Assembly (NCBI GenBank): GCA_017442155.1
Contig: JAFSAU010000016.1
Coordinates: 99,723 to 163,722, forward strand
Reading direction: 5' to 3'
DNA from: Clostridia bacterium
GTDB lineage: Bacteria > Bacillota > Clostridia > UMGS1883 > UMGS1540
Length of the DNA: 64,000 nucleotides
Within the stretch, counting starts at the first letter, position 1. Every line of letters starts with the position of its first letter. Made by a program: the position numbers and the translations under genes. Positions 14,279 through 54,601 of the stretch are shown in pieces. The notes beneath the pieces are model-generated. The model was given only the letters and a program-made list of their open reading frames with translations, did not search any database and was not told the DNA's origin.

Positions 14279-17200
14279 AGATAAATCCATTCAGAAGGTA
14301 CTGGTTATCGGTTCCGGTCCTATTGTTATTGGCCAGGCAGCAGAATTCGACTATGCAGGTGCGCAGGCTTGCCGTGTACTTCGGAGCGAGGGTATCAATG
14401 TTGTATTGGTAAATTCCAATCCTGCAACGATTATGACAGATAAAAATCTTGCAGATGAAATATATCTGGAGCCGCTTAATGCAGATACGGTGCGTCGCAT
14501 CATTGAAAAAGAACAGCCGGACGGCCTTCTGGCAGGCCTCGGTGGGCAGACGGGACTGACAATCGCCATGCAGCTGACTCGTGACGGCACTCTTGCAAAA
14601 AATGGGGTACGTTTGCTCGGTACTGATATCGATGCAATTGAGAAGGCGGAGGACAGGGAGCTGTTCCGGAATGCCATGCAGGAAATTGGACAGCCTGTAG
14701 TTCCGTCTGAAATTGCCACAACGGTCGAGGAAGCTTTGTCCGCGGCTGTGGGCATCGGTTATCCCGTTATTGTTCGTCCGGCCTTTACGCTGGGCGGAAG
14801 CGGCGGCGGTATTGCGGGTGATGAATCCGATTTACGGACAATTGCCAAAACGGGTCTTGATATGTCGCCCATTACCCAGGTGCTTATTGAAAAATGTATT
14901 TCCGGCTGGAAGGAAATTGAGTTTGAAACCATGCGCGATAGCGCGGGGAACGCTATTGCTGTCTGTTCTATGGAAAATGTGGACCCGGTGGGGATCCACA
15001 CCGGCGATTCCATTGTTGTTGCCCCTGCACTCACGCTTTCGCCTAAAGAATATACGATGCTTCATGATGCGGCACTGGATATGGTGGCCAAAATTGGCAT
15101 TGTGGGCGGCTGTAACTGTCAGTTTGCATTAAATCCGGATAGCTTTGAATATGCGGTGATTGAGGTAAATCCACGTGTTTCCCGTTCTTCAGCACTCGCT
15201 TCCAAGGCAACCGGATATCCGATTGCTAAAATCACAACCAAAATTGCCCTTGGATACACACTTGATGAAATTCAAAATGATATCACCGGCAGTACATCGG
15301 CTTGCTTTGAACCGACTGTGGATTATGTGGTGGTTAAGTTCCCTAAATGGCCCTTTGAAAAATTTGCCACGGCCAGTCGGGTACTTGGTACGCAGATGAA
15401 AGCCACGGGTGAGGTGATGGCGATTGCCCCTTCCTTTGAAGCTGCACTTATGAAGGCTGTGCGCGGAGCAGAAATTTCACTGGACACGCTGGATGCTAAA
15501 CCAATTTCAGATCTTTCACTTATGGAACGGCTTGCCGTAGCGGACGATCGCCGCATTTTCACGGTGTTTGAAGCAATTAAAAAAGGTGTTACCGTTGACG
15601 AAATTTTTGCAATTACAAAAATTGACCGGTGGTTTCTCAACAAAATAAAAAACCTTGCAGAGTTTGAAACAGAAATTAAAAACGGACTTTCGGACGAAAA
15701 GTATTGTCTCGGTAAAAAACTTGGGTATACGGATGCCGCACTGTCCCGTATATCCGGCCGCACGGATTTGCCGGAAGGCACTCTGTGCTATAAGAAGGTA
15801 GATACTTGTGCCGGAGAATATGAGGCAGTAAAGCCCTATTTTTATTCTGATTTTGGTGGAGAATGTGAAGCCAGAGGTTTTGTCCGCTCCGGCAAGCCGG
15901 TTATTATGGTGTTAGGTTCCGGACCGATTCGCATTGGTCAGGGAATTGAATTTGATTATAGTAGTGTGCATAGCGTATGGACACTGCAGAAAATGGGATA
16001 CGATGTGGTTATTGTCAATAATAATCCGGAGACAGTTTCCACGGACTATGATACGGCTGACCGCCTTTATTTCGAGCCGCTTTCGCCGGAAGATGTTATG
16101 CACATCATAAATATTGAAAAGCCCATCGGCGTCGTGGTGGCGTTCGGGGGACAGACGGCAATAAAGCTTACTAATTTTTTAGATAACGCCGGGATTCCCA
16201 TTTTAGGGACGTCTGCTGATGGAATTGACATGGCCGAAGACCGCGAGCGTTTCGATGCGTTACTTGAAAAATTTGGCATCCGCCGTCCGCGAGGTCTCGG
16301 GGTTCGCACGATGGAAGAAGCCTTAGAGGCGGCAAAATCCCTTGGATATCCGGTTTTGCTCCGTCCGTCGTACGTGATTGGCGGTCAGAACATGACGATT
16401 TCACGCGGCGATGAACAGACACGCCGGTATATGAAAGCAATTCTGTCCACGGGTATTGAAAATCCCGTGCTGGTTGATAAATATATGCCTGGGACAGAAC
16501 TTGAGGTTGACGTTATTTCTGACGGTGAGGACGTACTGATTCCCGGTATAATGGAGCATATAGAGCGCGCAGGCGTACATAGCGGTGATTCCATTGCGGT
16601 ATACCCGCCCTATAACCTCAGCGATAAATTGCTCGATAAAATCTGCCGTTCTGCAGAAAAACTGGCACTTGCACTGGGAACAAAAGGACTTGTCAATATT
16701 CAGTATTTAGTTTACCAGAATGAGCTGTATGTCATTGAGGTGAATCCCCGTGCTTCGCGCACAGTGCCTTATATCAGTAAGGTGACAAATGTGCCGATGG
16801 TGGACCTGGCCTCCAGGGTTATGCTTGGTGAAAAGCTGGCGGACCTTGGCTACGGAACGGGACTTTATCGAACACCGCCTTATTTTGCGGTTAAGGTACC
16901 GGTTTTTTCTTTTGAGAAGCTACACGATGCAAACTCTATGCTCAGTCCGGAAATGAAATCCACAGGAGAAGTGCTTGGTATTGGTAAAACTATGCCCGAA
17001 GCTTTGTTTAAAGGTCTTTCTGCCGCAGGTTTTGCGTTCCCGGACGAAAACGAGCGAGGCAGGACCGGTGTTCTTATCAGTGTGGAGGAAAGCGACTACG
17101 AGGAAAGTATTTCTCTTGCAAAGCGTTTCCACGACCTGGGAATTCATATTTATGCTACCACCGGCACTGCAGCGGCAATCCGCACATTAGGTATAGACGT

Positions 17201-18290
17201 TAAAGATGTGGAAAAAGAAAAAATTGAAGAACTGATGGAGGGTGGAAGTCTTTCGTATATTATTTATACCGGGGCGGTTAAAGACGGAACGGTTGGGGAC
17301 TATATTGCACTTCACAAACGGGCTATGCAGCTTGGTGTACCATGCCTTACCTCACTGGATACGGCCGGCGCACTGGCCGACATTATTGAAGGTCGTTTCA
17401 ATGGTGCAAATACGGAACTTGTGGATATCAATGCTATGCGTCCCTGGCGGAGGAAGATTCGTTTTGCAAAGATGCATTCTGCCGGAAATGATTATATTTT
17501 CATTGAGAATTTTGATGGAGGAATCACTTGCCCTGAGTCCCTTTGTGTCAGTCTCTGTGCACCACATTACGGTATCGGCGGCGATGGAATTGTACTGATT
17601 GAACGATCTTCTGTTGCAGATGCTAAAATGCGAATTTTCAACCGTGACGGCAGCGAAGGACGGATGGCAGGAAACAGCATCCGTTGTGTTGGTAAATATC
17701 TTTATGACAAAGGGTATGTTCGCAGTGAGTTTATTTCTGTGGAAACCTCCGGAAGCGTTAACCTTCTTCGGCTGTATCTTCGCGACGGTAAGGTCAGCAC
17801 GGTAACCGTGGATATGGGACGTGCCGACCTGAAAGCAGCGTCTATTCCGGCTTTAGTAAATGCAGAAACGTTGATAAATTATCCGCTGTCCGTTGGGGGT
17901 GACACCCATCGTGTAACCTGTGTTTCGCTGGGGAATCCACACTGTGTGCTGTTTTGTGACAGTATTGACGCCATCGATACGGCGGCGATCGGTCCGGCTT
18001 TTGAATATGCCGACGTATTTCCGGAGCGCGTGAATACAGAATTTGTTCGGGTTGTAAACAAAACGACACTTCGTATGCGTGTGTGGGAGAGAGGAAACGG
18101 CGAAACTCTTTCCTGCGGCACAGGGGCTTGTGCGGCGGTGGTGGCTGCTGTGGAAAATGGTTTTTGCGAAAAAAATACGGATGTGGTTGTAAAACTTCGT
18201 GGAGGGGATCTTGTGGTTAATTACAGCGATGAGCGTATTCTTCTCACTGGAAGTGCTGTCATGGTCTTTGAAGGTGAATTTGAATACTAA
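14271..18290 (+). CDS. carB: Carbamoyl-phosphate synthase large subunit (to about 17435) fused in frame to a diaminopimelate epimerase (DapF) domain (about 17436-18290)
   Basis: Two ATP-grasp halves and an MGS-like domain account for about 1055 aa. There is no stop codon before KMHSAGNDYIF…GIGGDG…NRDGSEGRMAGNSIRC…CGTGACAA, which is a full DapF fold. The first catalytic Cys of DapF (xCGNG) is replaced by Ala (MAGNS); the second (CGTGACA) is retained. Confidence 0.8.
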   Translation: MPKDKSIQKVLVIGSGPIVIGQAAEFDYAGAQACRVLRSEGINVVLVNSNPATIMTDKNLADEIYLEPLNADTVRRIIEKEQPDGLLAGLGGQTGLTIAMQLTRDGTLAKNGVRLLGTDIDAIEKAEDRELFRNAMQEIGQPVVPSEIATTVEEALSAAVGIGYPVIVRPAFTLGGSGGGIAGDESDLRTIAKTGLDMSPITQVLIEKCISGWKEIEFETMRDSAGNAIAVCSMENVDPVGIHTGDSIVVAPALTLSPKEYTMLHDAALDMVAKIGIVGGCNCQFALNPDSFEYAVIEVNPRVSRSSALASKATGYPIAKITTKIALGYTLDEIQNDITGSTSACFEPTVDYVVVKFPKWPFEKFATASRVLGTQMKATGEVMAIAPSFEAALMKAVRGAEISLDTLDAKPISDLSLMERLAVADDRRIFTVFEAIKKGVTVDEIFAITKIDRWFLNKIKNLAEFETEIKNGLSDEKYCLGKKLGYTDAALSRISGRTDLPEGTLCYKKVDTCAGEYEAVKPYFYSDFGGECEARGFVRSGKPVIMVLGSGPIRIGQGIEFDYSSVHSVWTLQKMGYDVVIVNNNPETVSTDYDTADRLYFEPLSPEDVMHIINIEKPIGVVVAFGGQTAIKLTNFLDNAGIPILGTSADGIDMAEDRERFDALLEKFGIRRPRGLGVRTMEEALEAAKSLGYPVLLRPSYVIGGQNMTISRGDEQTRRYMKAILSTGIENPVLVDKYMPGTELEVDVISDGEDVLIPGIMEHIERAGVHSGDSIAVYPPYNLSDKLLDKICRSAEKLALALGTKGLVNIQYLVYQNELYVIEVNPRASRTVPYISKVTNVPMVDLASRVMLGEKLADLGYGTGLYRTPPYFAVKVPVFSFEKLHDANSMLSPEMKSTGEVLGIGKTMPEALFKGLSAAGFAFPDENERGRTGVLISVEESDYEESISLAKRFHDLGIHIYATTGTAAAIRTLGIDVKDVEKEKIEELMEGGSLSYIIYTGAVKDGTVGDYIALHKRAMQLGVPCLTSLDTAGALADIIEGRFNGANTELVDINAMRPWRRKIRFAKMHSAGNDYIFIENFDGGITCPESLCVSLCAPHYGIGGDGIVLIERSSVADAKMRIFNRDGSEGRMAGNSIRCVGKYLYDKGYVRSEFISVETSGSVNLLRLYLRDGKVSTVTVDMGRADLKAASIPALVNAETLINYPLSVGGDTHRVTCVSLGNPHCVLFCDSIDAIDTAAIGPAFEYADVFPERVNTEFVRVVNKTTLRMRVWERGNGETLSCGTGACAAVVAAVENGFCEKNTDVVVKLRGGDLVVNYSDERILLTGSAVMVFEGEFEY

Positions 18291-24271: not shown

Positions 24272-25321
24272 TCATATAATAAGCTCTGTAATAACGTAAT
24301 TGGCAATATCCATGCCACGCTCTGTAAGACGGATGTTTTCACCATGTTTTTCTAAAAGTCCGGCACGAATCAAGCGTGGCACATTGCTATTTCCGTCATA
24401 CCGGATGCCTTTCCGCAACCGAAGTCCAAGCATGTATCGTTCTTCGTAACGGTCAGCATCCGTCAGAACAGTTTTATTTGCCACAGCATCCGTGGATGAA
24501 ATGTACGCTTTTAAATCACAAGTGTTTTCATACCTTACGCCGTCCGTATATCCGTGTGCACCGGCACCAAGACCGATATATTCACCGCAAAGCCAGTAGT
24601 TTGTATTATGCATTGCTTCAAAACCGGGACGGGCGAAATTGGAAATCTCATACTGCAGAAACCCGTGCCCTTCCAGAGACCGGCGAAGGGAATAATACAT
24701 TTCTCTTTCGGCCTCCTCCTCCGGCAGTTCCGGAGAGCGTACCGCAAAAGGAGTCCCATCCTCGATGCTTAGAGAATAGGCAGAAATATGCGAAACCGGC
24801 AGGTTACAAAGCTGATCGGCAGAAAAGGCCACATCCTCCGGCGTCTGTCCGGGTAATCCAAACATAAGGTCTGCCGAAATGTTTTCAAATCCTGCATTTG
24901 ACGCATCAAGGATTGTCTGAGCTGCATCCTCCGCCGAATGGAGACGCTCTAAGAACTGAAGTTCTTCATTCTTCAGAGATTGCACACCGATACTAATTCG
25001 ATTAAATCCAGCACGACGTAAAATCTGTAGCGAGGCGGGGGACACGGTGGCGGGATTTGCCTCCACTGTAATTTCGCCATTGCATGGGAATCTTTCAAGA
25101 AGTGTAGCCAAAAGGTCTTTAAGCAGTGTGGGTGGCAAGACAGTTGGGGTCCCGCCGCCGAAATATATTGTATCCACAGGACGCGGAGAAAATAAACGGG
25201 ATTCCTGTATTACCCTTTCCACATAGGCCGGAAAAAGTGATTCTGCACCGCTTACGGAATAGAATGCACAATATGGACATTTGCGGAGGCAAAAGGGGAG
25301 ATGTACATATAGTCCGATCAT
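24272..25321 (-). CDS. hemW: Radical SAM heme chaperone HemW (HemN-like, oxygen-independent coproporphyrinogen-III oxidase family)
   Basis: N-terminus [20 protein letters not shown]. About 350 aa, sitting immediately downstream of lepA as in many Firmicutes. Confidence 0.85.
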
Positions 25322-27123
25322 GAGTCAAGCTTGAGAACAGACATAAAGGCTTCCTGCGGAATGGAAACAGAACCAACCTGCCGCATTCTCTTTTTGCCTT
25401 CCTTCTGTTTTTCCAGAAGCTTTTTCTTACGGGTAATATCACCGCCGTAACACTTTGCCAGTACGTCCTTGCGGAGTGCACGAACCGTTTCGCGGGCGAT
25501 GATTTTTCCGCCGATAGCCGCCTGGATGGGCACTTCAAAAAGCTGTCGGGGAATGGAATCCTTCAATTTTTCTGCGATACGCCGTCCGCGTGCGTATGCT
25601 TTGGTGGAATGCACCACAAAGCTGAGCGCATCTACGATATCGCCGTTGAGAAGCATATCCAGCTTCACAAGGTCACTTTTTACATACGACTTAAATTCAT
25701 AGTCAAAGGATGCATACCCCCGTGTGCGGGACTTCAGTGCGTCAAAAAAGTCATAAATTATTTCATTGAGTGGCAGTTCATAATGCAGGGAAACACGTCC
25801 TTCGTCAATATACTGCATATCCTTATAAATGCCACGACGGTCCTGACAAAGCTCCATTACGCTTCCCACATAGGGCTGGGGGAGCATAATGTGGGCGTCC
25901 ACAAAGGGCTCTTCCATATAATCAATTTCCGTCATCGGAGGCAGGTTTGTAGGGTTGTCCACGAACACAACACTGCCGTCAGTTTTGACAACACGATAAA
26001 TAACACTGGGGGCAGTTGTAACAAGGTCAATATTGTATTCTCTTTCCAAGCGTTCCTGAATAATTTCCATATGCAGAAGGCCGAGAAAACCGCAACGGAA
26101 TCCAAACCCCAGAGCTATACTTGTTTCTGGTTCATACATCAGTGAAGCGTCGTTCAGCTTCAGTTTTTCCAGTGCTTCTCTTAGGTCCTCATATCTGGCT
26201 CCATCTGCCGGATAAATACCGGAGAACACCATGGGGTTTACTTCCTTGTAGCCCGGCAATGGTTCTCTTGCCGGAGTAGCCACTGCGGTTACGGTGTCAC
26301 CAACCTTGACGTCCTGCACAGTTTTGATGCTGGCGGCAATATATCCAACTTCACCAGCCTGGAGCGTTTCGGAGGGGGCGAATCCGTCAGGTTTAAGGTA
26401 TCCGAGTTCTACGACTTCAAATTCACCGCCCGTAGCCATGAAACGGATCATATCCCCGCGGGAAAGCTGTCCTTCGTGAATCCGGACATAAACAATAACA
26501 CCCTTGTAGCTGTCGTAGTAGGAATCAAAAATCAGAGCCCGGAGCGGTGCGGATTCATCACCGGAAGGAGCAGGGATGTTGTCAATAATATAATCCGGTA
26601 GACAATCGATGTTAATACCCTGTTTCGCACTTATCAGCGGCGCATTTTCAGCCTCGATGCCGATAACATTTTCAATTTCCCGTTTTACAACATCCGGCTG
26701 AGCACTGGGTAAATCAATTTTATTGATAACAGGAAGGATTTCCAGATTGTGTTCAATGGCAAGATAGGTGTTTGCAAGCGTCTGCGCCTCAATCCCTTGT
26801 GCCGCGTCCACAACAAGAAGAGCACCTTCGCAGGCGGCAAGTGACCGGGAAACCTCGTAATTAAAGTCCACATGCCCCGGGGTGTCAATAAGATTCAAAA
26901 TGTACTCTCCGTCATCCCGCTTGTAAACAAGCCGCACAGCACGGGCTTTAATTGTAATCCCGCGTTCCCGCTCAAGATCCATGTTATCCAGAAGCTGGTC
27001 CTCCATGTCCCGCTCGCTTACGATTCCCGTAAGTTCTAAAAGCCGGTCTGCCAGCGTGGATTTGCCGTGGTCAATATGTGCAATAATGGAAAAATTTCGG
27101 ATAAACGCCTGTCGGTCTGCCAT
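25318..27123 (-). CDS. lepA: Elongation factor 4
   Basis: [24 protein letters not shown] strong AAGGAG RBS precedes the second ATG (27123); the ORF-track start is 27144. Confidence 0.95.
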
Positions 27124-27297
27124 AAAATTGCTCCTTATTTTCATTCATTCTATATATCATACCATAAAACCAGAAAAAATGGAAGGATAAAATTATAAAT
27201 TTTAAAATTTTTTAAAAAACCCAATGTTTTCCAAGAATATTTTTCGCTACAAGGTAAACACTAACAGCACGATTTGAAATTTAAAGGAGTTTTTCAT

Positions 27298-39248: not shown

Positions 39249-39384
39249 GTTTTAAATATATCACCTTTTTATCTTTTCTGCAAGAGGCAAGTCGATTTTT
39301 TTCACCATTTCGTCAATTTTTAGGGTTTATAACGGTAGTATGTGATGTTATAATACATAAACTGAACGTATTGAGGTGAATTTG

Positions 39385-41829
39385 ATGTATATTTCATTGC
39401 CGAAAACAGAGGGAGAACCGCTTCTTCCAACATATTTTCCTACAACAATGCAAGCCTTTGTATTTCGGAACTGGAGCATGGTTGCTAAAGAAAGAATAGC
39501 ACTCGTTTTAGAAACAACCGTCGAAAATGTAGAAAATCTCGCCTTTGGAATGGGATTGCAGCCGCAGGAAGATGTTTCTCTCTGGGAAACACGAGGATAT
39601 ATCACGATTATTCGTTCCAACTGGCATCTACTGAACTACGAACAGCTTTTGATGCTTTTGGATTGGACGGCGGAACGTCTTGCCCTTGTTTTAAAGGAAG
39701 AAGATTTTTTAAGTGAAAAGCTGGGGAGAACGAAACCGCAGTGTGAGAAAATTACATATAGACCTCTTTCGGAAGAAGAACAGGCGAAAACAATAAAAAT
39801 AAGGAACGTAATAGAAAAGCTCCAGCATGAGATGCAGAACTTGGATAAAGCATCTCCTTTCGATTTTTACTCTTTATTCAAAAGAAAAACAGCCGAAGAA
39901 AGCGACGCTTGTATTGTTGACAACACCGGAGATCCGCTTTGTCAGGAAGCAATCAGACGATTCCGGAAAGATCTTTCACAAACTGTAGAAAAACACTCGG
40001 ATAAAACACTATATATTTCGTATCTTCGGAATAAGGAAGAAGAATTTCATTCTATTGAAATATCGGAAGACAGCGTGCATATTTCCGCAGGTGGTTACGG
40101 AGGCATTCTTCGCGGCCTGTATCGGCTTTTAGATATGGCGAGAACCTCCGGTTGGAAGAAAATAAAAAAGGAATGGGAGCCGCAAATTAAACTACGCTGC
40201 ATATACCCTTTTTCTGCGTCCTATCAGGATATTTTCGAGGGTGATTCCTCCGCATCATGTCCGGACAGTCTATTGGAAGAGTATGCCCGTATCGGTATAA
40301 ATGGGATATGGCTTCCGGTACTTTTGTACAGAATGGTTTCGTTTCCTTTTTCCCCGAAATTGTCGGAAGGCTATGAAATGCGTGTGAAGAATCTCCGGTC
40401 TTTTGCAAAGCGGGCGGCTTCTTTTGGGATTAGAGTATATCTATATTTAAACGAACCTCGCAGTATGCCCCTCGAGGCGTTTCGGGGAAATCCCGACATG
40501 ATGGGGACGCGTGCCGGCGATAAAGCCACCATGTGTATCTGTCATGAAAAAACAATTGCATATCTTGAATCTTCGATTTCTTCACTCTGCAGTCAGGTGC
40601 CGGAGCTTGGCGGTTTTTTCGTCATTTCAATGGCAGAAAATTTAACACTCTGTAAGTCTAAGCCAACTAATTTTTATGATGAAATGTGTCCACGCTGCAA
40701 GGATATACCATCTTGGAAGTTAGCTTCTACGATGCACACCGCACTTTATAACGGAATGAAAAAAGCAGCTCCGCACATGGAAATGTTTTATTTTGACTGG
40801 AGCTGGACAAGAGAAGACATAGGAATGTCCCCGGCCGATGCAGATAAATGTATCAGGGATCTTCCGGAGGGCGGTATTTTGCTTTGCCAACGTGAGATAG
40901 GGCTGGATTTTCCGAGAGGTGGACTTATCAAAACAGCAAGAGAATATGCCTTGAGCGTAAATGGAATCAGCCCCCGAAGCCAACATGCCTGGAATATTGC
41001 AGGAGAATCCGGTCACCGCACTGCCGGAAAAATGCAGATTAATACCTCCTGGGAATGTTCCACTGTTCCGTATCTTCCTGTTTTCCAAAGAAACATAGAA
41101 CAGGTGGAGGCGATGAAAAGAGCTGGCTTGAATTATATCTTTTTCAGTTGGACGCTTGGCGGTTATCCGTCACCAAATATCCGTCTTGTTTCTGAATCGT
41201 TTTTTACTGCCGGCGAAGGAAAGCCTGATTATCTGAAACAACTTCAAAATATGTATGGAGAGAACAGTGAATGCATCTGGAAAGCAACGGAACATTTCAG
41301 CCTTGCAATGGAAGAGTATCCTTTTGATAAGGATTTCATATACAGTGGTCCGTCAAACGGCGGTGTGGGAAATATTTTTTACGAAAATCCAACCGGTCGT
41401 CCTTCGACTATGACCTGTTACACCTATGATAGTTTGAGTGACTGGGCAAAAATTTATCCTGAAGATGTTCTGGAAGAACAGTATTTCCTTCTTAGTTCCG
41501 AATGGGAGAGAGGGCTTTCGTATCTTGAGGGAATGGAAAATGAAATACGCGACATATCGTTTGCCACATACATACAGTTTAAGTCCTCATATCATCAGAT
41601 TCGTTTTATTCGCCTGCGGGACCGTTTTCTTTCCGGAGATAAAACATGCAGACAGGAGATTTTATCTATCGCAGCCGAAGAAGAAAAAATAGCCCGGGAA
41701 ATGTTTAAAATTATGTGCCGTCGTCCTTCAATCGGATTCGAAGCGGCAAATCACTATTATCTTAGTCCCGGAATGGTGATGGAAAAATTGGTAAACCTTG
41801 CGCATATAGCAGAACACTTCCGTGCATAG
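39385..41829 (+). CDS. Cytoplasmic hypothetical protein (about 815 aa), possibly a TIM-barrel glycoside-hydrolase-like enzyme
   Basis: No signal peptide. Contains …IRVYLYLNEPRSMP…, which resembles the NEP acid/base motif of clan GH-A. ATG after GAGGTG. Function not identified. Confidence 0.4.
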   Translation: MYISLPKTEGEPLLPTYFPTTMQAFVFRNWSMVAKERIALVLETTVENVENLAFGMGLQPQEDVSLWETRGYITIIRSNWHLLNYEQLLMLLDWTAERLALVLKEEDFLSEKLGRTKPQCEKITYRPLSEEEQAKTIKIRNVIEKLQHEMQNLDKASPFDFYSLFKRKTAEESDACIVDNTGDPLCQEAIRRFRKDLSQTVEKHSDKTLYISYLRNKEEEFHSIEISEDSVHISAGGYGGILRGLYRLLDMARTSGWKKIKKEWEPQIKLRCIYPFSASYQDIFEGDSSASCPDSLLEEYARIGINGIWLPVLLYRMVSFPFSPKLSEGYEMRVKNLRSFAKRAASFGIRVYLYLNEPRSMPLEAFRGNPDMMGTRAGDKATMCICHEKTIAYLESSISSLCSQVPELGGFFVISMAENLTLCKSKPTNFYDEMCPRCKDIPSWKLASTMHTALYNGMKKAAPHMEMFYFDWSWTREDIGMSPADADKCIRDLPEGGILLCQREIGLDFPRGGLIKTAREYALSVNGISPRSQHAWNIAGESGHRTAGKMQINTSWECSTVPYLPVFQRNIEQVEAMKRAGLNYIFFSWTLGGYPSPNIRLVSESFFTAGEGKPDYLKQLQNMYGENSECIWKATEHFSLAMEEYPFDKDFIYSGPSNGGVGNIFYENPTGRPSTMTCYTYDSLSDWAKIYPEDVLEEQYFLLSSEWERGLSYLEGMENEIRDISFATYIQFKSSYHQIRFIRLRDRFLSGDKTCRQEILSIAAEEEKIAREMFKIMCRRPSIGFEAANHYYLSPGMVMEKLVNLAHIAEHFRA

Positions 41830-41894
41830 AAAATTTTTGATATTTTTCCGTCTGCAGGGAATAATAAATATAAATTTTCATGCGGGAGGAAAAA

Positions 41895-43193
41895 ATGAAT
41901 AAATCCATTTGGACAGAAAATGTCCAATTACCTTCGTTTGAAAAGCTTGAAGGCGATATAAAAACAGATGTGTTGGTTATCGGCGGAGGGTTGTGCGGCA
42001 TTCTTTGCGCGCTTCGCCTGAAAGAAGCCGGTGTTGATTTTATACTGACAGAAAAAAACCGTATTGGGTCGGGTGTTACACAAAATACCACAGCAAAGAT
42101 TACCTCTCAGCATGGCTTAATCTATGCAAAGCTCTTGCAAAAACGGGGGAGGGAAACGGCACAAAAATATCTTTTCGCAAACGAAAAGGCAATTCATGCG
42201 TACGAAAAATTGGCATTGCATTGTAATTTTGAAAAAAAAGAGGCTCTTACGTATTCGCTTTCTGACAGAAGAAAGATTGAAGAGGAGGTAAAGGCAGTTT
42301 CGTCTTTAGGATTATCGGCAGACTTTGTGGAAAATACAGAGCTGCCCTTCCCGGTTCGCGGAGCTATTCGATTTAGAAATCAGGCATGTTTTCATCCGCT
42401 TCGCTTTCTCGCGGAAATCACCGGAGATTTGCCGATTTATGAAGATACGCCGGTGGAAGAACTGATGCCCGGCTATGCAGTTACATCTTCCGGGAAAATT
42501 CATTTTAAAGCCTGCATTATAGCAACACATTTTCCGATATTAAACAAGCATGGGGCGTATTTTCTGAAACTGTATCAACACCGTTCGTATGTGACGGCAG
42601 TAGAAAATGCACCGCATTTTTCAGGAATGTATGTAGACGAAAGTATGACAGGGTTTTCTTTCAGGAACTTTGATAAATATCTTTTTATTGGCGGCGGAGA
42701 TCACAGGACAGGAAAAAAAGGGATTGGATGGGATTCTGCGGAGTCGGTCTTGAAAAAGTATTATCCTGCCGCCAGAAGGGCCTTCACGTGGGCCACGCAG
42801 GATTGCATGAGCCTTGACGGCTTGCCTTATATCGGTGCATATGGAAAACACGCCGACGGTCTATATGTCGCCACCGGATTCAACAAATGGGGCATGACGT
42901 CCTCTATGGTAGCGGCAGATATTTTGTGTGACCTGGTACAAGGAAAGAAAAACGAGTTTGCAGATGTTTATTCACCCCAGAGAAGTATTTTGACGCCACA
43001 GCTATTTGTGAATGGAATTGAGGCTGTGGCAAGCATCCTGACACCTACTAAACCTCGTTGTCCCCATATGGGATGTGCACTCAAGTGGAATAAGAACGAA
43101 CGAACGTGGGATTGTCCGTGCCACGGCTCGCGTTTTTCCGCAGAAGGAAAAGTGCTTGACAATCCTTCCACAGAAAATATAAATAAATCCTGA
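41895..43193 (+). CDS. FAD-dependent oxidoreductase with C-terminal Rieske [2Fe-2S] domain (YhfW-like)
   Basis: N-terminal dinucleotide-binding motif DVLVIGGGLCG. C-terminal Rieske CPHMGC…CPCHGSRF. ATG after GGGAGG. Confidence 0.75.
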   Translation: MNKSIWTENVQLPSFEKLEGDIKTDVLVIGGGLCGILCALRLKEAGVDFILTEKNRIGSGVTQNTTAKITSQHGLIYAKLLQKRGRETAQKYLFANEKAIHAYEKLALHCNFEKKEALTYSLSDRRKIEEEVKAVSSLGLSADFVENTELPFPVRGAIRFRNQACFHPLRFLAEITGDLPIYEDTPVEELMPGYAVTSSGKIHFKACIIATHFPILNKHGAYFLKLYQHRSYVTAVENAPHFSGMYVDESMTGFSFRNFDKYLFIGGGDHRTGKKGIGWDSAESVLKKYYPAARRAFTWATQDCMSLDGLPYIGAYGKHADGLYVATGFNKWGMTSSMVAADILCDLVQGKKNEFADVYSPQRSILTPQLFVNGIEAVASILTPTKPRCPHMGCALKWNKNERTWDCPCHGSRFSAEGKVLDNPSTENINKS

Positions 43194-47912: not shown

Positions 47913-48488
47913 TTAACCTCGCTTCTGGAACAGTTTGGCACTGAAAATGCCTACAAAAAGTGCAGATATGGACACAATCCATACTGGAACAATGATTTCG
48001 CCCGGATTTGCAGACCCGGTCATCTGCCGTAAAAGAAGCAGGGTTGTTGGAAACAGCTGCAGGGAGGCGGTGTTGATTAGAACAAACAGACACATTTCAT
48101 TCGATGCCCTTTTTTTTCCGCAGTTTCGTTCATCCAAAAGCTGCATTGCACGAAGTCCAAGTGGGGTTGCAGCATTTCCCATTCCGAGGAGATTTGCGGC
48201 TATATTCATAACAATTGCACCGTGTGCCGGGTCATTCTTTTCAAGTTTGGGGAAAATAAAGCGGGTAAGAGGACGCAGAAGGGATGCAACGCAATGAATA
48301 ACACCGCTTTTCTCCGCAATTTCCATAAGTCCAGTCCAAAAACACATTACACCCAGCATTCCTAAAACAAGTGTTGCTCCTTCGCCGGCACCTGCAATGG
48401 CCGCTTCGCCAACCTCTGCAATGCGTCCCGTAAAAATTCCGAAAATAACAGCGGCAAGGAGTATAAAGCCCCAAATATAATTTAACAT
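47913..48488 (-). CDS. spmA: Spore maturation protein A
   Basis: MLNYIWGFILLAAVIFGIFTGRI. Membrane protein immediately upstream of spmB. Confidence 0.8.
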   Translation of the reverse strand: MLNYIWGFILLAAVIFGIFTGRIAEVGEAAIAGAGEGATLVLGMLGVMCFWTGLMEIAEKSGVIHCVASLLRPLTRFIFPKLEKNDPAHGAIVMNIAANLLGMGNAATPLGLRAMQLLDERNCGKKRASNEMCLFVLINTASLQLFPTTLLLLRQMTGSANPGEIIVPVWIVSISALFVGIFSAKLFQKRG

Positions 48489-48531
48489 AAAATCCCTCCC
48501 GTCTTATCCTTATGAATAGGATGTTGATGAT

Positions 48532-51500
48532 ATGCAAGAAAGTAGACATAAGGGTTTGTCGGAAATTTCGGACGGGCAGGCACTTGCGCTTGGCGTAATC
48601 GCAGGTGCATCTGAAGCCATAACAGAAAAAATCGGCATGGATGAACTCATGAATGTGAAGGGGGCAAAAAGCTGGAAACAGTATATTGTGAGAAACGCAA
48701 GGGCAGAAGCGGGAGAAGAAGGCATTTCAAACGTAGCCAATTTTCTGGGAGATATTATTGTAGCCGGCGACGAAAGTGAGTTTCAGAAGAACATAGAATA
48801 CTACGTTAAAGAAAAAGGACTGAAGGAAAACGAAGCATTCGGAAAAGCTTTTGGCGACCAGCTTTTAAGCATGGGACTTGATGCCCTTGCAGGTGCTATT
48901 TCGGGAAGCGTAATATCCGGCTCGTTAACACTTGTGAATAGTGCGGTACGGACACGGACAAACCGAGCAGAAGAAAATGAAATGGTACGCGGTATGCAGC
49001 AATGGCTTGCAGAAAGAAAGACACGGGAAGGAGAAGGAACACAGTATTCAATCACCGAAATTCGGGGAAAAAATGGGAGCTACGGAAATGGTGTTTACTT
49101 GGACACGAATGTTTTTGACGGTGTAAAGCCACGGGATTGGGGGAAAACATTAAATCGTTTTGTATATAACAATCTCGCCGGAAGTGAACTTACCATGTAC
49201 GACAAAAATGGGAATGCGGAAAGTGTTTTTCTTGCTAAGGCAAATGACAGGGTGAAAAAGGACGGGACAAATAATAGCCATAAAGTGATAGATAAGCTGG
49301 CAAGATACAAGGGGGACAATATTCGTGCACTTGCTACTGTACATCTGTCAGAGGCCTTGGAAACATCCGGAAATGAGAGAAGCACCAATGAACATTCACA
49401 TCAGTGGATGGATGAAAACGGATGGATATACAGAACTGCTTATTTTATGGATAAAAAAGGTGCAATATATGAAGCCACCCTGAATATAGCAGATGGAAAA
49501 AACAGAAAAATTCTTTATGATATAAATAAAATAAAAAAGATTGACGACGGCGTTGTGCCCTCGACCACAAAGGGAAGGGGCTCGCTCATAAACATCAATC
49601 CTTTTAGTAATATGGTAACACAAAAGAAGGGGGATGTCAAGCCTTTTGATGAAAATAATAGCTTTGCAATCAGCAGAATGCTTCCGAGAGCCGGAGAAAG
49701 TGGCCCCATACTTCCCACGGCGAAAGAGGAAATGGAAGCGAGAGAGCGGCAAAGAAGGGCAAACGAGGCAAAGACAGAGACGGAGCGGACGGGCATATTG
49801 TATGGGGCAACGGAAGAAAAAATCGGGATGGCGGTACGAATTTCGGAGGCCATAAACCGCGAGGTGGTATTTTATGAAAATACAGACCCGAACGTAAAAA
49901 ACGATGACGGATATTATAACAGCCGGGACGGAAAAATTTATATCAATGCAAAAAGTAAAAATGCGATACCAAGGATTATTGCACATGAAATAACGCACAG
50001 CGTGGAGCTTGCGGATTCGTATATAGACCTTTTCCGCACCGTAATCCGGCACATCCAGAAATCAGGTAAAAGCATTTCTGATATGCGAAGTGAGATAAAA
50101 AGCAGATACGAGGAAAATGGCGTGAAGCTTTCCAAAACTGCTGCGATTGATGCGGAAATTATGGCGGAATATATTGCGGAGCACCTTCTCACAGACGAAG
50201 CAAGCATTACAAACCTTGCGAAAGAAAGCCCCAAAAGTGCGAGAGGAATACTCCACTTTTTGGATTCTATTTTGGCAAAGCTGGGAAATACAAATGCGCA
50301 AGAACGGGTCTTTGTTGCGAAAGCACGGGCATTATATGCAAAGGCACTTGGAGAAACGCAGAGCACGGCGGAAACGGAAAGTGAGAGAATGCGGGGCGAG
50401 CGGCCGGTAGGGGCGGATAGCATCCGCCCGGATGAGAATGGTGCCGGAAACGGGCGGATAGTATCCGCCCCTACGGTGTCCGAGACAACAGGAGAGAAGC
50501 ACCCGATTATCCGGGAGAACGTTTTGCCGACGGCGGCAGAACGGTTTGGAAACAAGACGGTAGAGGCCCAGGACGGGCGGCAACCGGCAACCTCTACGAC
50601 GGAAAACGGCGGGACGGAGAGTAGAAGGGCAGAAGGAATGGCCGAGGTAGAAGCTATCGTTTCGGAAAACCTTCGGCCGGAGATTGCAGAAAATGCAGAG
50701 CTTATGGAAATGCTGCGTGCACAGTTTGGCGCAGACGGTACGGCGGCACTTGCCCGGCAAATCAAAGCAGAGGTTGAAAGAACCGGCACGGTCGGTAGAT
50801 TCGGCGTGCTGCTTTCCGATGGCGGCATGGCGGTGGAAGAAACTTTGGGGGCTGGCGATGTAAGCAATGGCGGGGAAAGACAATTTTCCATTTCAAAGGA
50901 TGAAGGCGCAGATACACTTCGTGAACGAGGAAAAATAACTGTAAATATGGATGAAGATGCGCGATATGAGGTGTTAAAGGACAAGAAAGTGACTCCTCAA
51001 GAAGTCGGGAGCCAAGGCAATGCTGATATTGATTTTGAATACCTTGAAAACAACATAAAGAGCGTTGTTGAGAAGGGGTTGCTGAAAAAATTTCAACAGA
51101 TGGGATTATTCAAGCGATACAAGTCAATTGCAGTGGGTGATATTTCCTTTGACTTTACAGGCAAGGGATTCCGGAAAAGTTTACACTCACAGGAAACGGC
51201 ATACGGAGGCAGTAAGGCGGATTTTGCGAAAGTATTGCTAAACTTAGAAAATTTGTTAGACGCTTCTGTTTTGATTGAGACGCATACTGATAAAGGAAAA
51301 GGAATGGACAAAGAAAAACGTGGACTAGAAAAAGTTTATGTTTTGTTCGGCGCATTAAGCGAAGACGGAACAATTACACCAGTTCAATTTGAGGTTGAGC
51401 AATACAAAAGCAATGAAAATCGTTTATACCTTGCTGTAGCATTAACAAAAATAGAGACAGGCGTCAAGGGCAATACGGCTTCCAAAGAACGGAAGGCGAC

Positions 51501-54354
51501 AAGCCTGTTACCAGTCTCTGATATCAGTATAGCAGAAATCTTTACAAAAATCAACCCCACAGACAAAAATTTTCTAAAATATATTCCCAATCAGTTTCTG
51601 GGTGCAGAACAAATTGCGGCAAAAGAAAAGGCGTTTGCAAAAGATAAAGAAAAATACTCCAATAAAACCAATCAACGTGATGACAACATTCAATACGCCA
51701 TAACAAAAGACCCCGTCGATACAGAAACCACCACGGAGAGTGCAGAAACAACTGACACTGCAGACTTCTGGGATGCATGGCTTGAAAAGGTGAAGGAATA
51801 CGGTGCAATGGAGAAGGGCGAGAAACCGGCAGCCTCTACGACGGAAAACGGCATGGCGGAGAGCAGAGGAGTAGAAGGAATGGCCGAGGTAGAAGCTATC
51901 GTTTCGGAAAACCTTCGGCCGGAGATTGCAGAAAATGCAGAGCTTATGGAAATGCTGCGTGCACAGTTTGGGGCTGACGGTACGGCGGCACTTGCCCGGC
52001 AAATCAAAGCAGAAGTTGAAAAGACCGGCTCGGTCGGTAGATTCGGCGTGCTGTTTTCCGATGGTGGCATGGCGGTGGAAGAAGCTTTGGGGGCTGGCGA
52101 TGTAAGCAATGGCGGGGAAAGACAATTTTCCATTTCAAAGGATGAGGAGACAGAAGGAATCTTCTCTGCCCCGCAAGAAGTGACAGAAAAGCTTTCAACG
52201 CAAGTGGATGCATGGCTTTCCGGAAAAATGGGTAGCAGTGATGTTTTTGATATAGGCCAAACGCCAATGGTACTGCAACAACTGGGAGCATTGGATTTGC
52301 CTGTTAGCATGAGCCAGGAGGTAATGGCGAAAATAACGGGCGAAAAGCATAATATTTCGCTTGGCGAAATAAAGCGTTTGCCACAAGCTATTGCGGATCC
52401 CATCATGGTATTCCAATCTGCTACAGTGCAAGATGCACTTGTGATTTTGACAGAGCTTTCTGATAAGAGTGGGAATGATGTGGTTGTAGCCATGCACCTA
52501 AACAGAAGGCGTGGGTTTAATAACATAAACAGAATTTCCAGTGCGTATGGGAAAAACAACATAGGGAATTTTATATCGCAGCAGATAGAAGCAGGGAATT
52601 TAAAATACGCAGATAAAAAAATGAGCCAAGAATGGCTTCGTAGCAGAGGGCTCCAATTGCCCAAGCTGAACACCATTCTTAACTCTAATAACAGTATACT
52701 CCAAAAAGAGGATATTGTCAATAAGTATTTTATAAAAAAATCCGGAAAATATGCACAGAATGCGGAAAATAAAAGTTTTTCTATAAGCGAGAAGCAGAAG
52801 GATGGACGGCAGTATTCGATTGGAAAAGAAAAAGGGGTTGCAAAGAAGGATGACACAGAGTATAATAAATACAACATGCCGAATCGACCGCTGAAACCAG
52901 GGGATACGTTTCCACCGTTCAATGAATCACATAGTGATGCAAACGAGAGAGCGACACGGTGGGCACACAGAGAAGACATAAAAAATGGCGATAAGGTAAT
53001 GGTGACATATCATGGCATGAAATACGTCATAACAAAAGACGATAATACACATTTAAGGTACACAATCGACAGAAAATTAACAAAAAAAGGATATTTAAGT
53101 GCGAAACAGTATTATGGGGAGGTAGAAGAATTTGACATTAATAGAGATGAACAGCAAAGAACAAAAGGAATTCTTTCAGACGGTAAGGGGAATAGAGAAT
53201 ACAATAGCAATAGAGAGGGAGGAAGTAGAAACGATACTTTGCTTAGTGCGGACAGTGGAAGGACTGGAGATGCTGAAGCAGTTCCTGGCAGAACAGGAGA
53301 AAGAACCGACGGCACAAGAGATACTGCACGAAGTATCGAAGATCAGCAGGATAGAGGAGCAGTTCATCCCGTGGGACGAGGAGGACGACGAAGAGGAGCA
53401 GTAGATGATGAAAGCATCCAATACGCCATAACAAAAGAGCCCGTCGATACAGAAATCACCACGGAGAGTGCAGAAACAACTGACACTGCAGACTTCTGGG
53501 ACGAATGGCTTGAAAAGGTGAAGGAATACGGTGCAATACCGAAGGGCGAGAAACCGGCACGGGACATTGAGGTTCCGAAAAAGATTGGAAAAAACAAGCC
53601 GGTAAGTCAGACCGTACGTACCATTTTAGAAGCGAAGGTAACGCCGGACGAGGCTATTCCCACCATAGAGCAGATGGTGTTAGACGGGGAATTCTCCTAC
53701 GACGTGCACACGGACAAAAAAGCCATAAAAGAAGCTGACGGAAAAATTGAAAAGCGGGGGTATATAGCCGCTTATGATGCCTGGGCAAAAGATATGGATG
53801 CCGGGAAAGTCTCGAAAGAAAACACGGCGTTAGGCTGGGCCCTTTACAATCAGGCGGCAACAAGCGGAGACATAAAAACCGCAACCACCATTCTGAACAA
53901 AATGGTGCAGCACCAGCGGAATGCGGCCCAGGCTTTGCAAGCAACCCGGATACTAAAGCAGCTTTCACCGGAGGGGCAGTTATATCAGGCAGTAAACGCC
54001 GTGGAAGCCCTGCAACAAGAGCTAAAAGAAAAATACGGAGACAAGGCACCGGATTTAAAAATCGACGAAAACCTTGCAAAAGAATTTTTAGAAGCAAGAA
54101 CCCAGAATGAACGGGACGAAATCATAAAGATAATCTACCGTGACATCGGGCGGCAGATGCCCTCCCGGTTTATCGACAAGTGGAACGCATGGCGGTACCT
54201 TGCCATGTTAGGGAACCCCAGAACGCACATTCGGAACATCGTCGGCAATGCGGAGGACAACGTGTCAAATGTGAAAATCTTTTGTCGAAAAAGAAAAAAT
54301 AAAAGGGACCATTTACGCATAACCTGCATACTGTGTATTGAGGCGCATATATAG
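48532..54354 (+). CDS. Giant hypothetical protein (1940 aa) with an HExxH zincin-like motif and internally repeated modules; resembles mobile-element polyvalent proteins; 3' end appears truncated
   Basis: Single open frame with no signal peptide or TM segment. IIAHEITHSVE gives an HExxH motif. Two DNA-level repeat modules lie inside the ORF. The C-terminus ends in an aberrant tail (…NVKIFCRKRKNKRDHLRITCILCIEAHI*). Confidence 0.55.
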   Translation: MQESRHKGLSEISDGQALALGVIAGASEAITEKIGMDELMNVKGAKSWKQYIVRNARAEAGEEGISNVANFLGDIIVAGDESEFQKNIEYYVKEKGLKENEAFGKAFGDQLLSMGLDALAGAISGSVISGSLTLVNSAVRTRTNRAEENEMVRGMQQWLAERKTREGEGTQYSITEIRGKNGSYGNGVYLDTNVFDGVKPRDWGKTLNRFVYNNLAGSELTMYDKNGNAESVFLAKANDRVKKDGTNNSHKVIDKLARYKGDNIRALATVHLSEALETSGNERSTNEHSHQWMDENGWIYRTAYFMDKKGAIYEATLNIADGKNRKILYDINKIKKIDDGVVPSTTKGRGSLININPFSNMVTQKKGDVKPFDENNSFAISRMLPRAGESGPILPTAKEEMEARERQRRANEAKTETERTGILYGATEEKIGMAVRISEAINREVVFYENTDPNVKNDDGYYNSRDGKIYINAKSKNAIPRIIAHEITHSVELADSYIDLFRTVIRHIQKSGKSISDMRSEIKSRYEENGVKLSKTAAIDAEIMAEYIAEHLLTDEASITNLAKESPKSARGILHFLDSILAKLGNTNAQERVFVAKARALYAKALGETQSTAETESERMRGERPVGADSIRPDENGAGNGRIVSAPTVSETTGEKHPIIRENVLPTAAERFGNKTVEAQDGRQPATSTTENGGTESRRAEGMAEVEAIVSENLRPEIAENAELMEMLRAQFGADGTAALARQIKAEVERTGTVGRFGVLLSDGGMAVEETLGAGDVSNGGERQFSISKDEGADTLRERGKITVNMDEDARYEVLKDKKVTPQEVGSQGNADIDFEYLENNIKSVVEKGLLKKFQQMGLFKRYKSIAVGDISFDFTGKGFRKSLHSQETAYGGSKADFAKVLLNLENLLDASVLIETHTDKGKGMDKEKRGLEKVYVLFGALSEDGTITPVQFEVEQYKSNENRLYLAVALTKIETGVKGNTASKERKATSLLPVSDISIAEIFTKINPTDKNFLKYIPNQFLGAEQIAAKEKAFAKDKEKYSNKTNQRDDNIQYAITKDPVDTETTTESAETTDTADFWDAWLEKVKEYGAMEKGEKPAASTTENGMAESRGVEGMAEVEAIVSENLRPEIAENAELMEMLRAQFGADGTAALARQIKAEVEKTGSVGRFGVLFSDGGMAVEEALGAGDVSNGGERQFSISKDEETEGIFSAPQEVTEKLSTQVDAWLSGKMGSSDVFDIGQTPMVLQQLGALDLPVSMSQEVMAKITGEKHNISLGEIKRLPQAIADPIMVFQSATVQDALVILTELSDKSGNDVVVAMHLNRRRGFNNINRISSAYGKNNIGNFISQQIEAGNLKYADKKMSQEWLRSRGLQLPKLNTILNSNNSILQKEDIVNKYFIKKSGKYAQNAENKSFSISEKQKDGRQYSIGKEKGVAKKDDTEYNKYNMPNRPLKPGDTFPPFNESHSDANERATRWAHREDIKNGDKVMVTYHGMKYVITKDDNTHLRYTIDRKLTKKGYLSAKQYYGEVEEFDINRDEQQRTKGILSDGKGNREYNSNREGGSRNDTLLSADSGRTGDAEAVPGRTGERTDGTRDTARSIEDQQDRGAVHPVGRGGRRRGAVDDESIQYAITKEPVDTEITTESAETTDTADFWDEWLEKVKEYGAIPKGEKPARDIEVPKKIGKNKPVSQTVRTILEAKVTPDEAIPTIEQMVLDGEFSYDVHTDKKAIKEADGKIEKRGYIAAYDAWAKDMDAGKVSKENTALGWALYNQAATSGDIKTATTILNKMVQHQRNAAQALQATRILKQLSPEGQLYQAVNAVEALQQELKEKYGDKAPDLKIDENLAKEFLEARTQNERDEIIKIIYRDIGRQMPSRFIDKWNAWRYLAMLGNPRTHIRNIVGNAEDNVSNVKIFCRKRKNKRDHLRITCILCIEAHI
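50582..50903 (+). repeat. Intragenic repeat module B, copy 1 (about 322 bp)
   Basis: About 93-95% identical to 51824-52145. Encodes …STTENG…EGMAEVEAIVSENLRPEIAENAELMEMLRAQFGADGTAALARQIKAEVE…FSISKDE. Confidence 0.85.
51688..51831 (+). repeat. Intragenic repeat module A, copy 1 (about 144 bp)
   Basis: Near-identical to about 53414-53559. Encodes QYAITK(D/E)PVDTE(T/I)TTESAETTDTADFWD(A/E)WLEKVKEYGA…KGEKPA. Confidence 0.85.
51824..52145 (+). repeat. Intragenic repeat module B, copy 2
   Basis: Directly abuts module A copy 1. Paired with 50582-50903. Confidence 0.85.
53414..53559 (+). repeat. Intragenic repeat module A, copy 2
   Basis: Paired with 51688-51831. Confidence 0.85.
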
Positions 54355-54379
54355 ATGCGCCAAGGATAGGAGATAAAGT

Positions 54380-54601
54380 ATGCTAATTCAGGTTCAATCT
54401 GTTACAGACGCTGTCAGAATGAAAAAATATCTGCGAAACCGGGGCATACGGGCTGAAGTGATACAATCACCGTCCTCTGTACGTGGCGGAAGCTGCAGCT
54501 TTGCTGTACGCGTTCCGGCTTCTGCATCGTCATCTGCCGAAAAAACGGCCCGGGAATCCGGTGTCGTTATCCTTGGTATCATGGGAAGTGGTGAAGGATG
54601 A
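54380..54601 (+). CDS. DUF3343-like small protein (putative S/Se carrier)
   Basis: 73 aa (MLIQVQSVTDAVRMKKYLRNRGIRAEVIQSP…GGSCSFAVRV). Its stop overlaps the start of the cysteine desulfurase, which is the usual pairing. Confidence 0.55.
   Translation: MLIQVQSVTDAVRMKKYLRNRGIRAEVIQSPSSVRGGSCSFAVRVPASASSSAEKTARESGVVILGIMGSGEG

Follow-up and report, generated by a model that had tools for sequence, protein, structure and literature searches.

The longest open reading frame (ORF) of the window analyzed here, a 64-kb stretch of contig JAFSAU010000016.1 from the metagenome-assembled genome (MAG) of a Clostridia bacterium, is a plus-strand gene of 1940 codons that starts at an ATG and occupies positions 48532 to 54354, the runner-up encoding 1339 aa. 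The initial annotation, which had given this giant ORF the same coordinates and length, described it as an orphan and as a possible lone remnant of a polyvalent protein. The comparisons presented below, all of them with metagenome assemblies, point to a fragment of a phage polyvalent-protein gene that is truncated at both ends and that exists as mosaic alleles at one chromosomal site, the version of the window being designated allele A. The ORF lies, as had been described, between conserved chromosomal genes. On its left are SHMT, HhH-GPD glycosylase, M23 peptidase, gpr (Peptidase_A25), spmB and spmA, and on its right a Se_S_carrier gene (formerly DUF3343) and a class-V aminotransferase gene, followed by AraC-type and glycoside-hydrolase genes. 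A spacer of 43 nt (48489 to 48531), with the same layout in alleles A, B and C, separates the start of the divergent spmA from that of the giant ORF and carries a TAG at 48517, in frame with the ORF, and an AGGA that precedes the ATG by about 9 nt. The right spacer measures 25 nt, and counted from gene start to gene start the two offsets are 44 and 26 nt. Only a weak sigma-70-like site was seen as a promoter, and no partner, immunity or regulator gene was found near the ORF.

The ORF comprises a succession of modules, all read on the plus strand. The head module (48532 to 49026, aa 1-165) contains glycine-rich GxxxG-like segments and corresponds to phrog_22978. It is followed by a slot-2 module that differs between alleles A, B and C (49027 to 49656) and by a zincin-like HExxH module common to the three alleles (49657 to 50403, aa 376-624), with HEITH at 49984 to 49998. 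A MuF_C domain (PF18819), which is a PBECR-type predicted RNase domain of polyvalent proteins, spans 52327 to 52632 (aa 1266-1367) and scored 96.5 bits in Pfam, where the cutoff is 27.6 (E = 1.2e-27). The last phage-type module, ending in ...WNAWRYLAMLGNPRTHIRNIVGNA, extends from 53506 to 54252 (aa ~1659-1907), and a 105-nt tail (54250 to 54354, AEDNVSNVK...EAHI*), 98-100% identical in alleles A and B, completes the frame. A small hairpin (GCGCAT-ATATAG-ATGCGC) precedes the ribosome-binding site of the Se_S_carrier gene at a short distance, and the stop codon falls within the loop of this hairpin. No convincing transmembrane segment was found in the ORF, the best Kyte-Doolittle 19-mer scoring 1.46, in agreement with what had been annotated.

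The description of the gene as an orphan has to be abandoned since, besides MuF_C, two giant-protein PHROG families with profiles of 2,793 and 3,513 positions match it, and the protein search scored at least 431 homologs, mostly of 2400-3300 aa, at E <= 1e-3. Many of these homologs carry Pfam families defined from polyvalent proteins, namely ART-PolyVal, LPD3, LPD23, PBECR5 and MuF_C. Every full-length relative whose context was examined was found in a phage contig, and the shortened ones stand alone among chromosomal genes. In two cases (P0004 and P0091) and in the IMG/VR contigs L112-L128, the full-length gene comes directly after terminase and portal-sized genes, and in contig L125 the gene preceding it matches phrog_511, 'internal virion protein', at E = 5e-78. 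The last module recurs, with about 60% identity, in 68 viral contigs whose lengths are about 30-45 kb, and one of these contigs derives from a sample in which this bacterial species was likewise present. In databases of cultured phages and plasmids only the MuF_C module matched, in giant LPD5/LPD38 proteins of Stx phages. The ORF contains head, slot-2, zincin-like, MuF_C and further modules, in an order permuted relative to P0002, a lone gene of another genome discussed below, and with a content that varies among alleles. The giant ORF represents an interior portion of a giant phage polyvalent-protein gene, and the lone remnant suspected by the initial annotation is supported by MuF_C, by the full-length phage relatives and by truncation. 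Of the two sources that had been suggested, phages and conjugative elements, the terminase, portal-sized and internal-virion genes next to the relatives speak for the former and not for the latter.

The alignments place truncations at both ends of the ORF. Its aa 1-130 align to residues ~390-650 of the full-length phage proteins, and the phage similarity extends a few codons upstream of the ATG, where it reaches the TAG at 48517. On the 3′ side, the last module breaks off at a point beyond which two phage-type relatives (P0005 and P0022) run on for more than 500 residues, and the final 33 codons extend into the region just upstream of the Se_S_carrier gene. Relative to its full-length relatives, the giant ORF lacks ~400-500 N-terminal and at least 500 C-terminal residues. 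Because of this double truncation and of a stop codon borrowed from the upstream region of a neighbor, the original virion-delivered role would hardly be possible, and delivery of the chromosomal fragment in a virion is implausible because no virion genes are present.

Polyvalent proteins of phages and conjugative elements were defined by Iyer, Burroughs, Anand, de Souza and Aravind (2017, J Bacteriol, PMC5512222), who also describe a third context, in which lone genes in host genomes are interpreted as remnants "that might be deployed defensively". The giant ORF holds a defining domain above its curated threshold and multiple conflict-type domains in shuffled architectures. Encoding by a mobile element was found for P0004, P0091 and the viral contigs and not at the locus itself, where 64 kb without mobile-element genes therefore fit the third context, that of a host-genome remnant. 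Regarding the usual marks of a prophage remnant, phage homology and absence from the sister species were observed; additional phage genes, an integrase and att repeats were not.

The zincin-like module deserves separate consideration. The motif IIAHEITHSVE, already pointed out in the initial annotation, corresponds to aa 482-492 of the giant ORF, and the HExxH residues H101, E102 and H105 of the module (ORF aa 485, 486 and 489) are invariant in 19 diverse homologs of 31-90% identity. No match to PF18818 (MPTase-PolyVal) at E <= 1 was obtained for the giant ORF or for any of the 19 members of the module family. These members gave sub-threshold matches to other metallopeptidases, DUF6782 in 13 of the 19 (best E = 1e-5) as well as Zn_peptidase, M91, M13 and M78, and the PHROG search returned phrog_87, 'metallo-protease', at E = 2.8e-5. 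Two fold searches found no zincin match, fold searches of two module models gave no function-assigning match, and sequence searches of the PDB with the giant protein and with the zincin profile had no match. The module may therefore be called zincin-like, and its membership in ArdC/MPTase-PolyVal is a candidate assignment that these searches did not demonstrate.

The near-identical shuffled modules reported earlier correspond to two direct repeats on the plus strand, the copies of each being 94% identical. Repeat D1 (300 nt) is found at 50582 to 50881, where it ends in the linker motif ERQFSISKDE, and at 51824 to 52123, and repeat D2 (154 nt, IQYAITKDPVDTETTTESAETTDTADFWD...) at 51678 to 51831 and at 53406 to 53559. 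The acidic stretches were likewise recovered, with DTETTTESAETTDTADFWD at aa 1063-1081 and a near-copy at aa 1639-1657. A short motif, [QSKR][YF][SA]I[STGKA] (QYSIT, SFAIS, QFSIS, QYAIT and others), marks the module boundaries at aa 171, 377, 784, 1054, 1198, 1415, 1427 and 1630. The eight occurrences in allele A compare with 0.1 expected from shuffled sequences; there are nine in P0002, six in P0012 and two to four in those full-length phage proteins that have the motif. Lone chromosomal genes show it most often and full-length phage proteins less often, and it may serve for cleavage, for docking as a strand or as a microhomology in recombination.

Immediately 3′ of the HExxH module lies a 72-nt, near-perfect palindrome with 24-nt arms (50405 to 50476, GERPVGADSIRPDENGAGNGRIVSAPT), which constitutes an in-frame insertion. 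Each arm is itself a small hairpin, and the predicted RNA fold reaches -53 kcal/mol (z = -5.2). The palindrome was found in alleles A, B and C only, being absent from the other homologs and from the rest of the 3.1 Mb of fetched DNA, and it therefore marks descent of the three alleles from one chromosomal copy. A role as a functional RNA or DNA structure was considered and rejected, since the four substitutions in the palindrome of allele C include none that is compensatory, and the sequence looks like a decaying inserted palindromic element. A scan of the giant-ORF locus against Rfam returned sub-threshold hairpin matches only.

The allelic series emerged when the same species was recovered from many samples through exact-sequence look-ups of the ORF relatives, SpmA and the Se/S-carrier proteins. 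Allele B (P0003, 1441 aa) was found at exactly this position, between spacers identical to those of the window, on 15 contigs drawn from several JGI, ENA and NCBI samples, and its flanks are 98.8% identical to those of the window over 10.5 kb and 99.2% over 9.8 kb, the Se_S_carrier and class-V aminotransferase genes staying in place downstream of both alleles. Alleles A and B are 99-100% identical at nt 48532-48800, and identity falls to 68-78% by 49000. Between 49000 and 49650, in slot 2, they are non-homologous, A carrying a module common in phages and B carrying LPD3. In the HExxH module (49700-50570), tracts of 80% and 100% identity alternate. From 50571 to 54249 the two are unrelated, with MuF_C and other modules in A and ART-PolyVal in B, and at 54250 identity returns abruptly to 98-100%. 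Both PF18760 ART-PolyVal and PF18798 LPD3 of allele B score above the Pfam cutoffs, so that the profile search recommended in the initial annotation did return polyvalent and LPD-type domains, MuF_C in allele A and these two in allele B.

Allele C (L203:3-1682; GCA_045540395.1, JAZQHE010000159.1) comes from a separate assembly, with flanks 99.3% identical to the window. It is partial, as its contig stops 560 aa into the ORF, and it starts at the same point as A and B. An in-frame deletion of ~93 aa has joined two glycine-rich motifs of its head module that resemble each other, its slot 2 holds a third kind of module, nearest to that of P0002 (61%), and in the HExxH module it shares 87% identity with allele B. 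The slot-2 modules of A and B gave a weak colinear hhalign match (E = 0.06), and those of A and C none. Allelism and mosaicism at a fixed site are thus documented by aligned alleles with nearly identical flanks, and the comparison with related genomes, proposed earlier as a check on insertion, revealed mosaic alleles at the same position and no conserved cellular orthologue, together with a sister species without the gene.

The right junction indicates a probable direction of change. At first sight, the right ends of two unrelated phage-type modules, those of A and B, fall within a few nucleotides of the same point. In phage homologs of the last module of allele B, the sequence ...PVHKAQAE is followed about 45 residues later by GEAEDNIRxLxN.RGR.K.RD, and the shared tail AEDNVSNVKNFCRKRKNKRD aligns best precisely at this GEAEDN... 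segment. The alignment score is 37, which 4 of 300 shuffled sequences also attained, a moderate significance. The first ~20 codons of the 105-nt tail resemble a continuation of the last module of allele B, and the tail is therefore read as a leftover of a B-type module. With this moderate statistical support, we infer that allele B is nearer to the ancestral state and that allele A arose from it by one replacement. The left crossover of that replacement would have been homologous, within a tract of 100% identity at ~50300-50570, and the right joint illegitimate, at the microhomology GCGG(AG) at 54250. Site-specific cassette insertion was also considered for the identical right junction and was set aside, because the tail fits the continuation of the B module and a single illegitimate joint in A suffices.

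Modules are shared beyond the species. P0002, the lone gene of 2251 aa already mentioned, belongs to a genome in which the core genes flanking it share only ~73% identity with the window, and yet the module at 50836 to 51831 (996 nt, plus strand) has 97.5% DNA identity with part of P0002, whereas other modules are 72-87% identical and arranged in a different order. P0002 is also truncated at both ends, running into local sequence, and it is located between two putative opposite-strand tRNA genes (L007:9770-9850 and 16790-16860, read by eye), in a stretch of ~16 kb that is absent between LepA and the SpoVT-like gene of the window genome. Further lone, shortened relatives stand among housekeeping genes, one adjoining alanine racemase (P0068) and another adjoining Mn-catalase (P0028). 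The excess of module identity (97.5%) over that of the core flanks (73%) speaks for recent horizontal exchange.

The sister species, whose SpmA is 78% identical, was reached through exact-sequence look-ups and an SpmA homolog search. It keeps the SHMT...gpr-spmB-spmA block (L204, Ga0307249_10007453, from JGI sample 3300029305, in which the window species also occurs), and upstream of spmA there is a DAO/Rieske gene and then hrcA-grpE-dnaK-dnaJ. No giant ORF was found beside its spmA, although the loss of synteny at that point means that the site does not count as cleanly empty. The DAO/Rieske gene of the window species is found at the other side of SHMT (41880-43193). The giant ORF is therefore lineage-specific and situated at a rearrangement or synteny breakpoint. 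A scan of species-representative genomes with Gpr yielded only relatives of <=50% identity without synteny, uninformative as to insertion, and a metagenome scan with SpmA yielded only relatives of <=57% identity, in which the spmA-spmB synteny alone was conserved. On these alignments and gene orders, cross-species sharing of modules and absence from the sister species are both demonstrated for the genomes compared.

Composition, codon usage and att-like repeats had been expected to be informative, and none of them showed anything. Codon usage, GC and GC3 of the giant ORF do not deviate from those of 32 neighboring genes, and comparison of 48440-48600 with 54200-54420 revealed no direct or inverted repeat of >=8 nt, which is below chance expectation. 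The coding strand has a strong A/purine skew because the giant protein is rich in Glu, Lys and Asp. In accordance with what had been noted for its vicinity, no integrase, transposase, relaxase, replication or phage structural gene was found among the annotated ORFs of the 64-kb window. The remainder of the window is occupied by genes of arginine and pyrimidine biosynthesis, LepA, glycoside hydrolases and S-layer proteins (the stretch of 15-37 kb was annotated by a Pfam scan), and its sole tRNA gene, a tRNA-Leu at 28.7 kb, lies 20 kb from the giant ORF. Some of these genes have features of their own. An ORF of 846 aa (5342-7882) joins an EF-G/EF-Tu-type GTPase (to about aa 591) to a C-terminal YacP-like NYN nuclease (aa 705-844), an unusual fusion if real, and the 1339-aa ORF (14271-18290) joins a carbamoyl-phosphate synthase large chain to a C-terminal diaminopimelate epimerase (aa 1217-1332), which may be a fusion or a missed stop. 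An ORF of 817 aa at 39376-41829 is conserved in the species (814 aa in other strains) without a Pfam match at E <= 1e-5, and exact-sequence look-up of the LepA-like ORF at 25318-27144 gave no record.

Altogether, we consider that the locus is an evolving relic that acts as a recombination sink for phage DNA and has no dedicated host function, a reading to which we assign a probability of about 0.55. Phage polyvalent proteins, which consist of many modules, would be packaged in the virion and ejected with the DNA, as suggested by gene order, and one Clostridia (Oscillospiraceae-like) lineage would have fixed an internal piece of such a gene in its chromosome, next to spmA on the upstream side. 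Its interior would then have been overwritten repeatedly by recombination with polyvalent genes of infecting phages or with other chromosomal copies, through homologous exchange at conserved modules and at the short Q-[YF]-[SA]-I-[ST] boundary motifs. The outcome would be three mosaic alleles that keep the same ends and differ by swaps of their effector modules, and the long open frame would reflect youth and frame-preserving recombination rather than host selection. We infer this recombination mechanism, its direction from a B-like ancestor and the lack of function from the arrangement of the alleles. Several observations weigh against such a relic. The frame of 4.3-5.8 kb is uninterrupted in all alleles despite module swaps and despite a 93-aa deletion, a palindrome insertion and an illegitimate joint, the last three being in frame; dN/dS is 0.09-0.56 on all shared segments, with 0.10 in the flanking genes; an AGGA precedes the ATG; and the alleles carry different predicted effectors, RNase-like against ADP-ribosyltransferase, which is what diversifying selection would be expected to produce in a functional conflict protein. 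These observations do not settle the matter. The frame is preserved when coding modules recombine homologously, and the low dN/dS may have been acquired in phage donors. With in-situ divergence at ~1%, no more than about 1-3 disabling mutations would be expected in each allele under neutrality, and the protein search recovers long ORFs only, which biases the sample toward intact frames. Intact frames, low dN/dS and boundary motifs fit a working protein and also a young relic rebuilt from functional phage genes.

The foremost alternative, possible though doubtful in our judgment, is a domesticated conflict protein, in which the host would keep and express the fragment as a defensive or competitive multi-effector whose modules are swapped under diversifying selection; the embedded zincin may then cleave at the Q-[YF]-[SA]-I-[ST] motifs and release the modules. 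The frame kept intact in three alleles through several rearrangements and the dN/dS range argue for it, as do alleles that differ precisely in their predicted effectors (MuF_C against ART-PolyVal/LPD3), the retention of the HExxH module with invariant catalytic residues in all alleles, a linker motif enriched far beyond expectation with most copies in lone chromosomal genes, and the recurrence of intact lone copies in related genomes. The idea has a precedent for lone copies in Iyer et al. (2017, PMC5512222), who also propose that an embedded metallopeptidase processes the polyvalent protein. However, both termini look accidental, the start lying inside a phage domain and the stop in the intergenic hairpin of a neighbor; only the weak sigma-70-like promoter is available, and there is no partner, immunity or regulator gene nearby. 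No family of PADLOC-DB 2.0 matched allele A, allele B or P0002 at E <= 0.01, the palindrome within the ORF is decaying, and the low dN/dS and the kept frame have the neutral explanations given above. A stronger form of this idea, which we regard as rather unlikely, is that the locus is a cassette slot owned by the host, in which an expressed, domesticated polyvalent protein captures effectors from phages at conserved modules and boundary motifs and has them released by the zincin. If so, phage counter-defence weapons would become a strain-variable factor of host defence or competition, and P0002, P0068 and P0028, truncated at both ends yet intact, would be further instances of the strategy.

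Three other explanations carry less weight than the relic and its domesticated counterpart. That the gene is cargo or part of an active, unrecognised mobile element (a phage satellite, an integrative and conjugative element or a transposon) between spmA and the Se/S-carrier gene would agree with its lineage-specific occurrence at a synteny breakpoint, with modules 97.5% identical across species, with the tRNA genes that bracket P0002 and with a TnpV gene near the relative P0040. It is nevertheless improbable, given the want of integrase, transposase, relaxase and replication genes in 64 kb and of shared direct or inverted repeats of >=8 nt at the two ends, the 43 and 25 nt that separate the ORF from its neighbors, with variable DNA strictly inside the ORF, and a position identical in all strains. 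An assembly artefact, in which phage reads were misjoined into a chromosomal scaffold or the interior of allele A was mis-ordered via D1 and D2, is still harder to credit. The window does come from a MAG, and in an independent Logan assembly (SRR12529059) contigs break inside D1 (~50660) and inside D2 copy 2 (~53508), the repeats therefore confusing short-k assemblers, so that the module order of allele A between these two points rests on ENA and NCBI assemblies that may share reads. However, the same Logan assembly (L106, L111) reproduces both ORF ends, and with them both allele A junctions, at 100% identity; allele B recurs identically with the same junctions on its 15 contigs, allele C is from another assembly, and the 6% difference between the copies of D1 and between those of D2 suffices for a k=141 assembler to tell the copies apart. 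Least credible of all is a bona fide cellular giant protein with a housekeeping or sporulation-related role: codon usage and GC3 resemble those of the neighbors and the position beside spmA/spmB/gpr is fixed, but the gene is absent from the sister species, which retains the spmA block, all homologs are polyvalent, with the full-length relatives of examined context in phage contigs, and the interior is unconserved even within the species.

Polyvalent proteins are among the largest and least understood proteins of phages, and knowledge of them is nearly all computational. To our knowledge, whether lone host copies are junk or domesticated weapons, a question raised in 2017, has never been examined. 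The locus offers a natural series, with one site, flanks of ~99% identity, three mosaic alleles with different predicted effectors and one module shared across species, which makes testable both this question and the rate and joints of recombination between phage genes and chromosomal relics in gut or rumen Clostridia. If the locus is only a relic, it would be an ordinary though neat example of phage-chromosome recombination.

In comparison with known systems, the giant ORF resembles polyvalent proteins in its many modules, with MuF_C (PBECR-type) and a zincin-like HExxH motif in one allele and ART-PolyVal and LPD3 in a sister allele, in relatives that adjoin portal and terminase packaging genes, in its extreme mosaicism and in its condition of a lone chromosomal gene without mobile-element context. 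It departs from the lone copies described in the accessible sections of Iyer et al. (2017, PMC5512222) in being cut at both ends, in having at least three mosaic alleles at one site with flanks of ~99% identity and in sharing a 97.5% identical module with the lone gene of a different species. A within-species allelic series with fixed ends and near-identical modules shared across species are not described in those sections, nor in the corresponding ones of Jamet et al. (2017, BMC Biol, PMC5576092), which place ~4% of muf genes outside anything recognisable as a prophage or prophage remnant. Giant LPD5/LPD38 proteins of Stx-converting and related Escherichia phages share a MuF_C-containing module, with 33% identity over aa 1179-1378, although only that module matches and both the host phylum and the remaining architecture are unrelated. 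The MuF polymorphic toxins of temperate phages are likewise phage head-module proteins with variable toxin-like modules. Unlike them, the giant ORF (E <= 1) and three full-length relatives (E <= 0.01) have no Pfam match to an N-terminal MuF domain (Phage_Mu_F), the Se_S_carrier and class-V aminotransferase genes stand downstream instead of an immunity-like gene, and the variation consists in replacement of internal modules and not in exchange of the C-terminal tip. The Dar/DdrB-type internal head proteins of phage P1 are among the ejected anti-restriction proteins, and the giant gene of the phage relatives, which adjoins an 'internal virion protein' gene, may be likened to them by description only, the chromosomal fragment having no virion in which to be packaged. 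Finally, Rhs/CdiA-type polymorphic toxin loci are strain-variable mosaic giant genes whose conserved parts anchor the recombination that swaps effectors, with displaced modules. The giant-ORF locus, also strain-variable and mosaic with swapped effector modules, could be compared with them; it differs in having no YD/Rhs or FHA repeats, secretion signal or immunity genes, in the fixation of both ends and not of the N-terminal part alone, and in modules that derive from phages.

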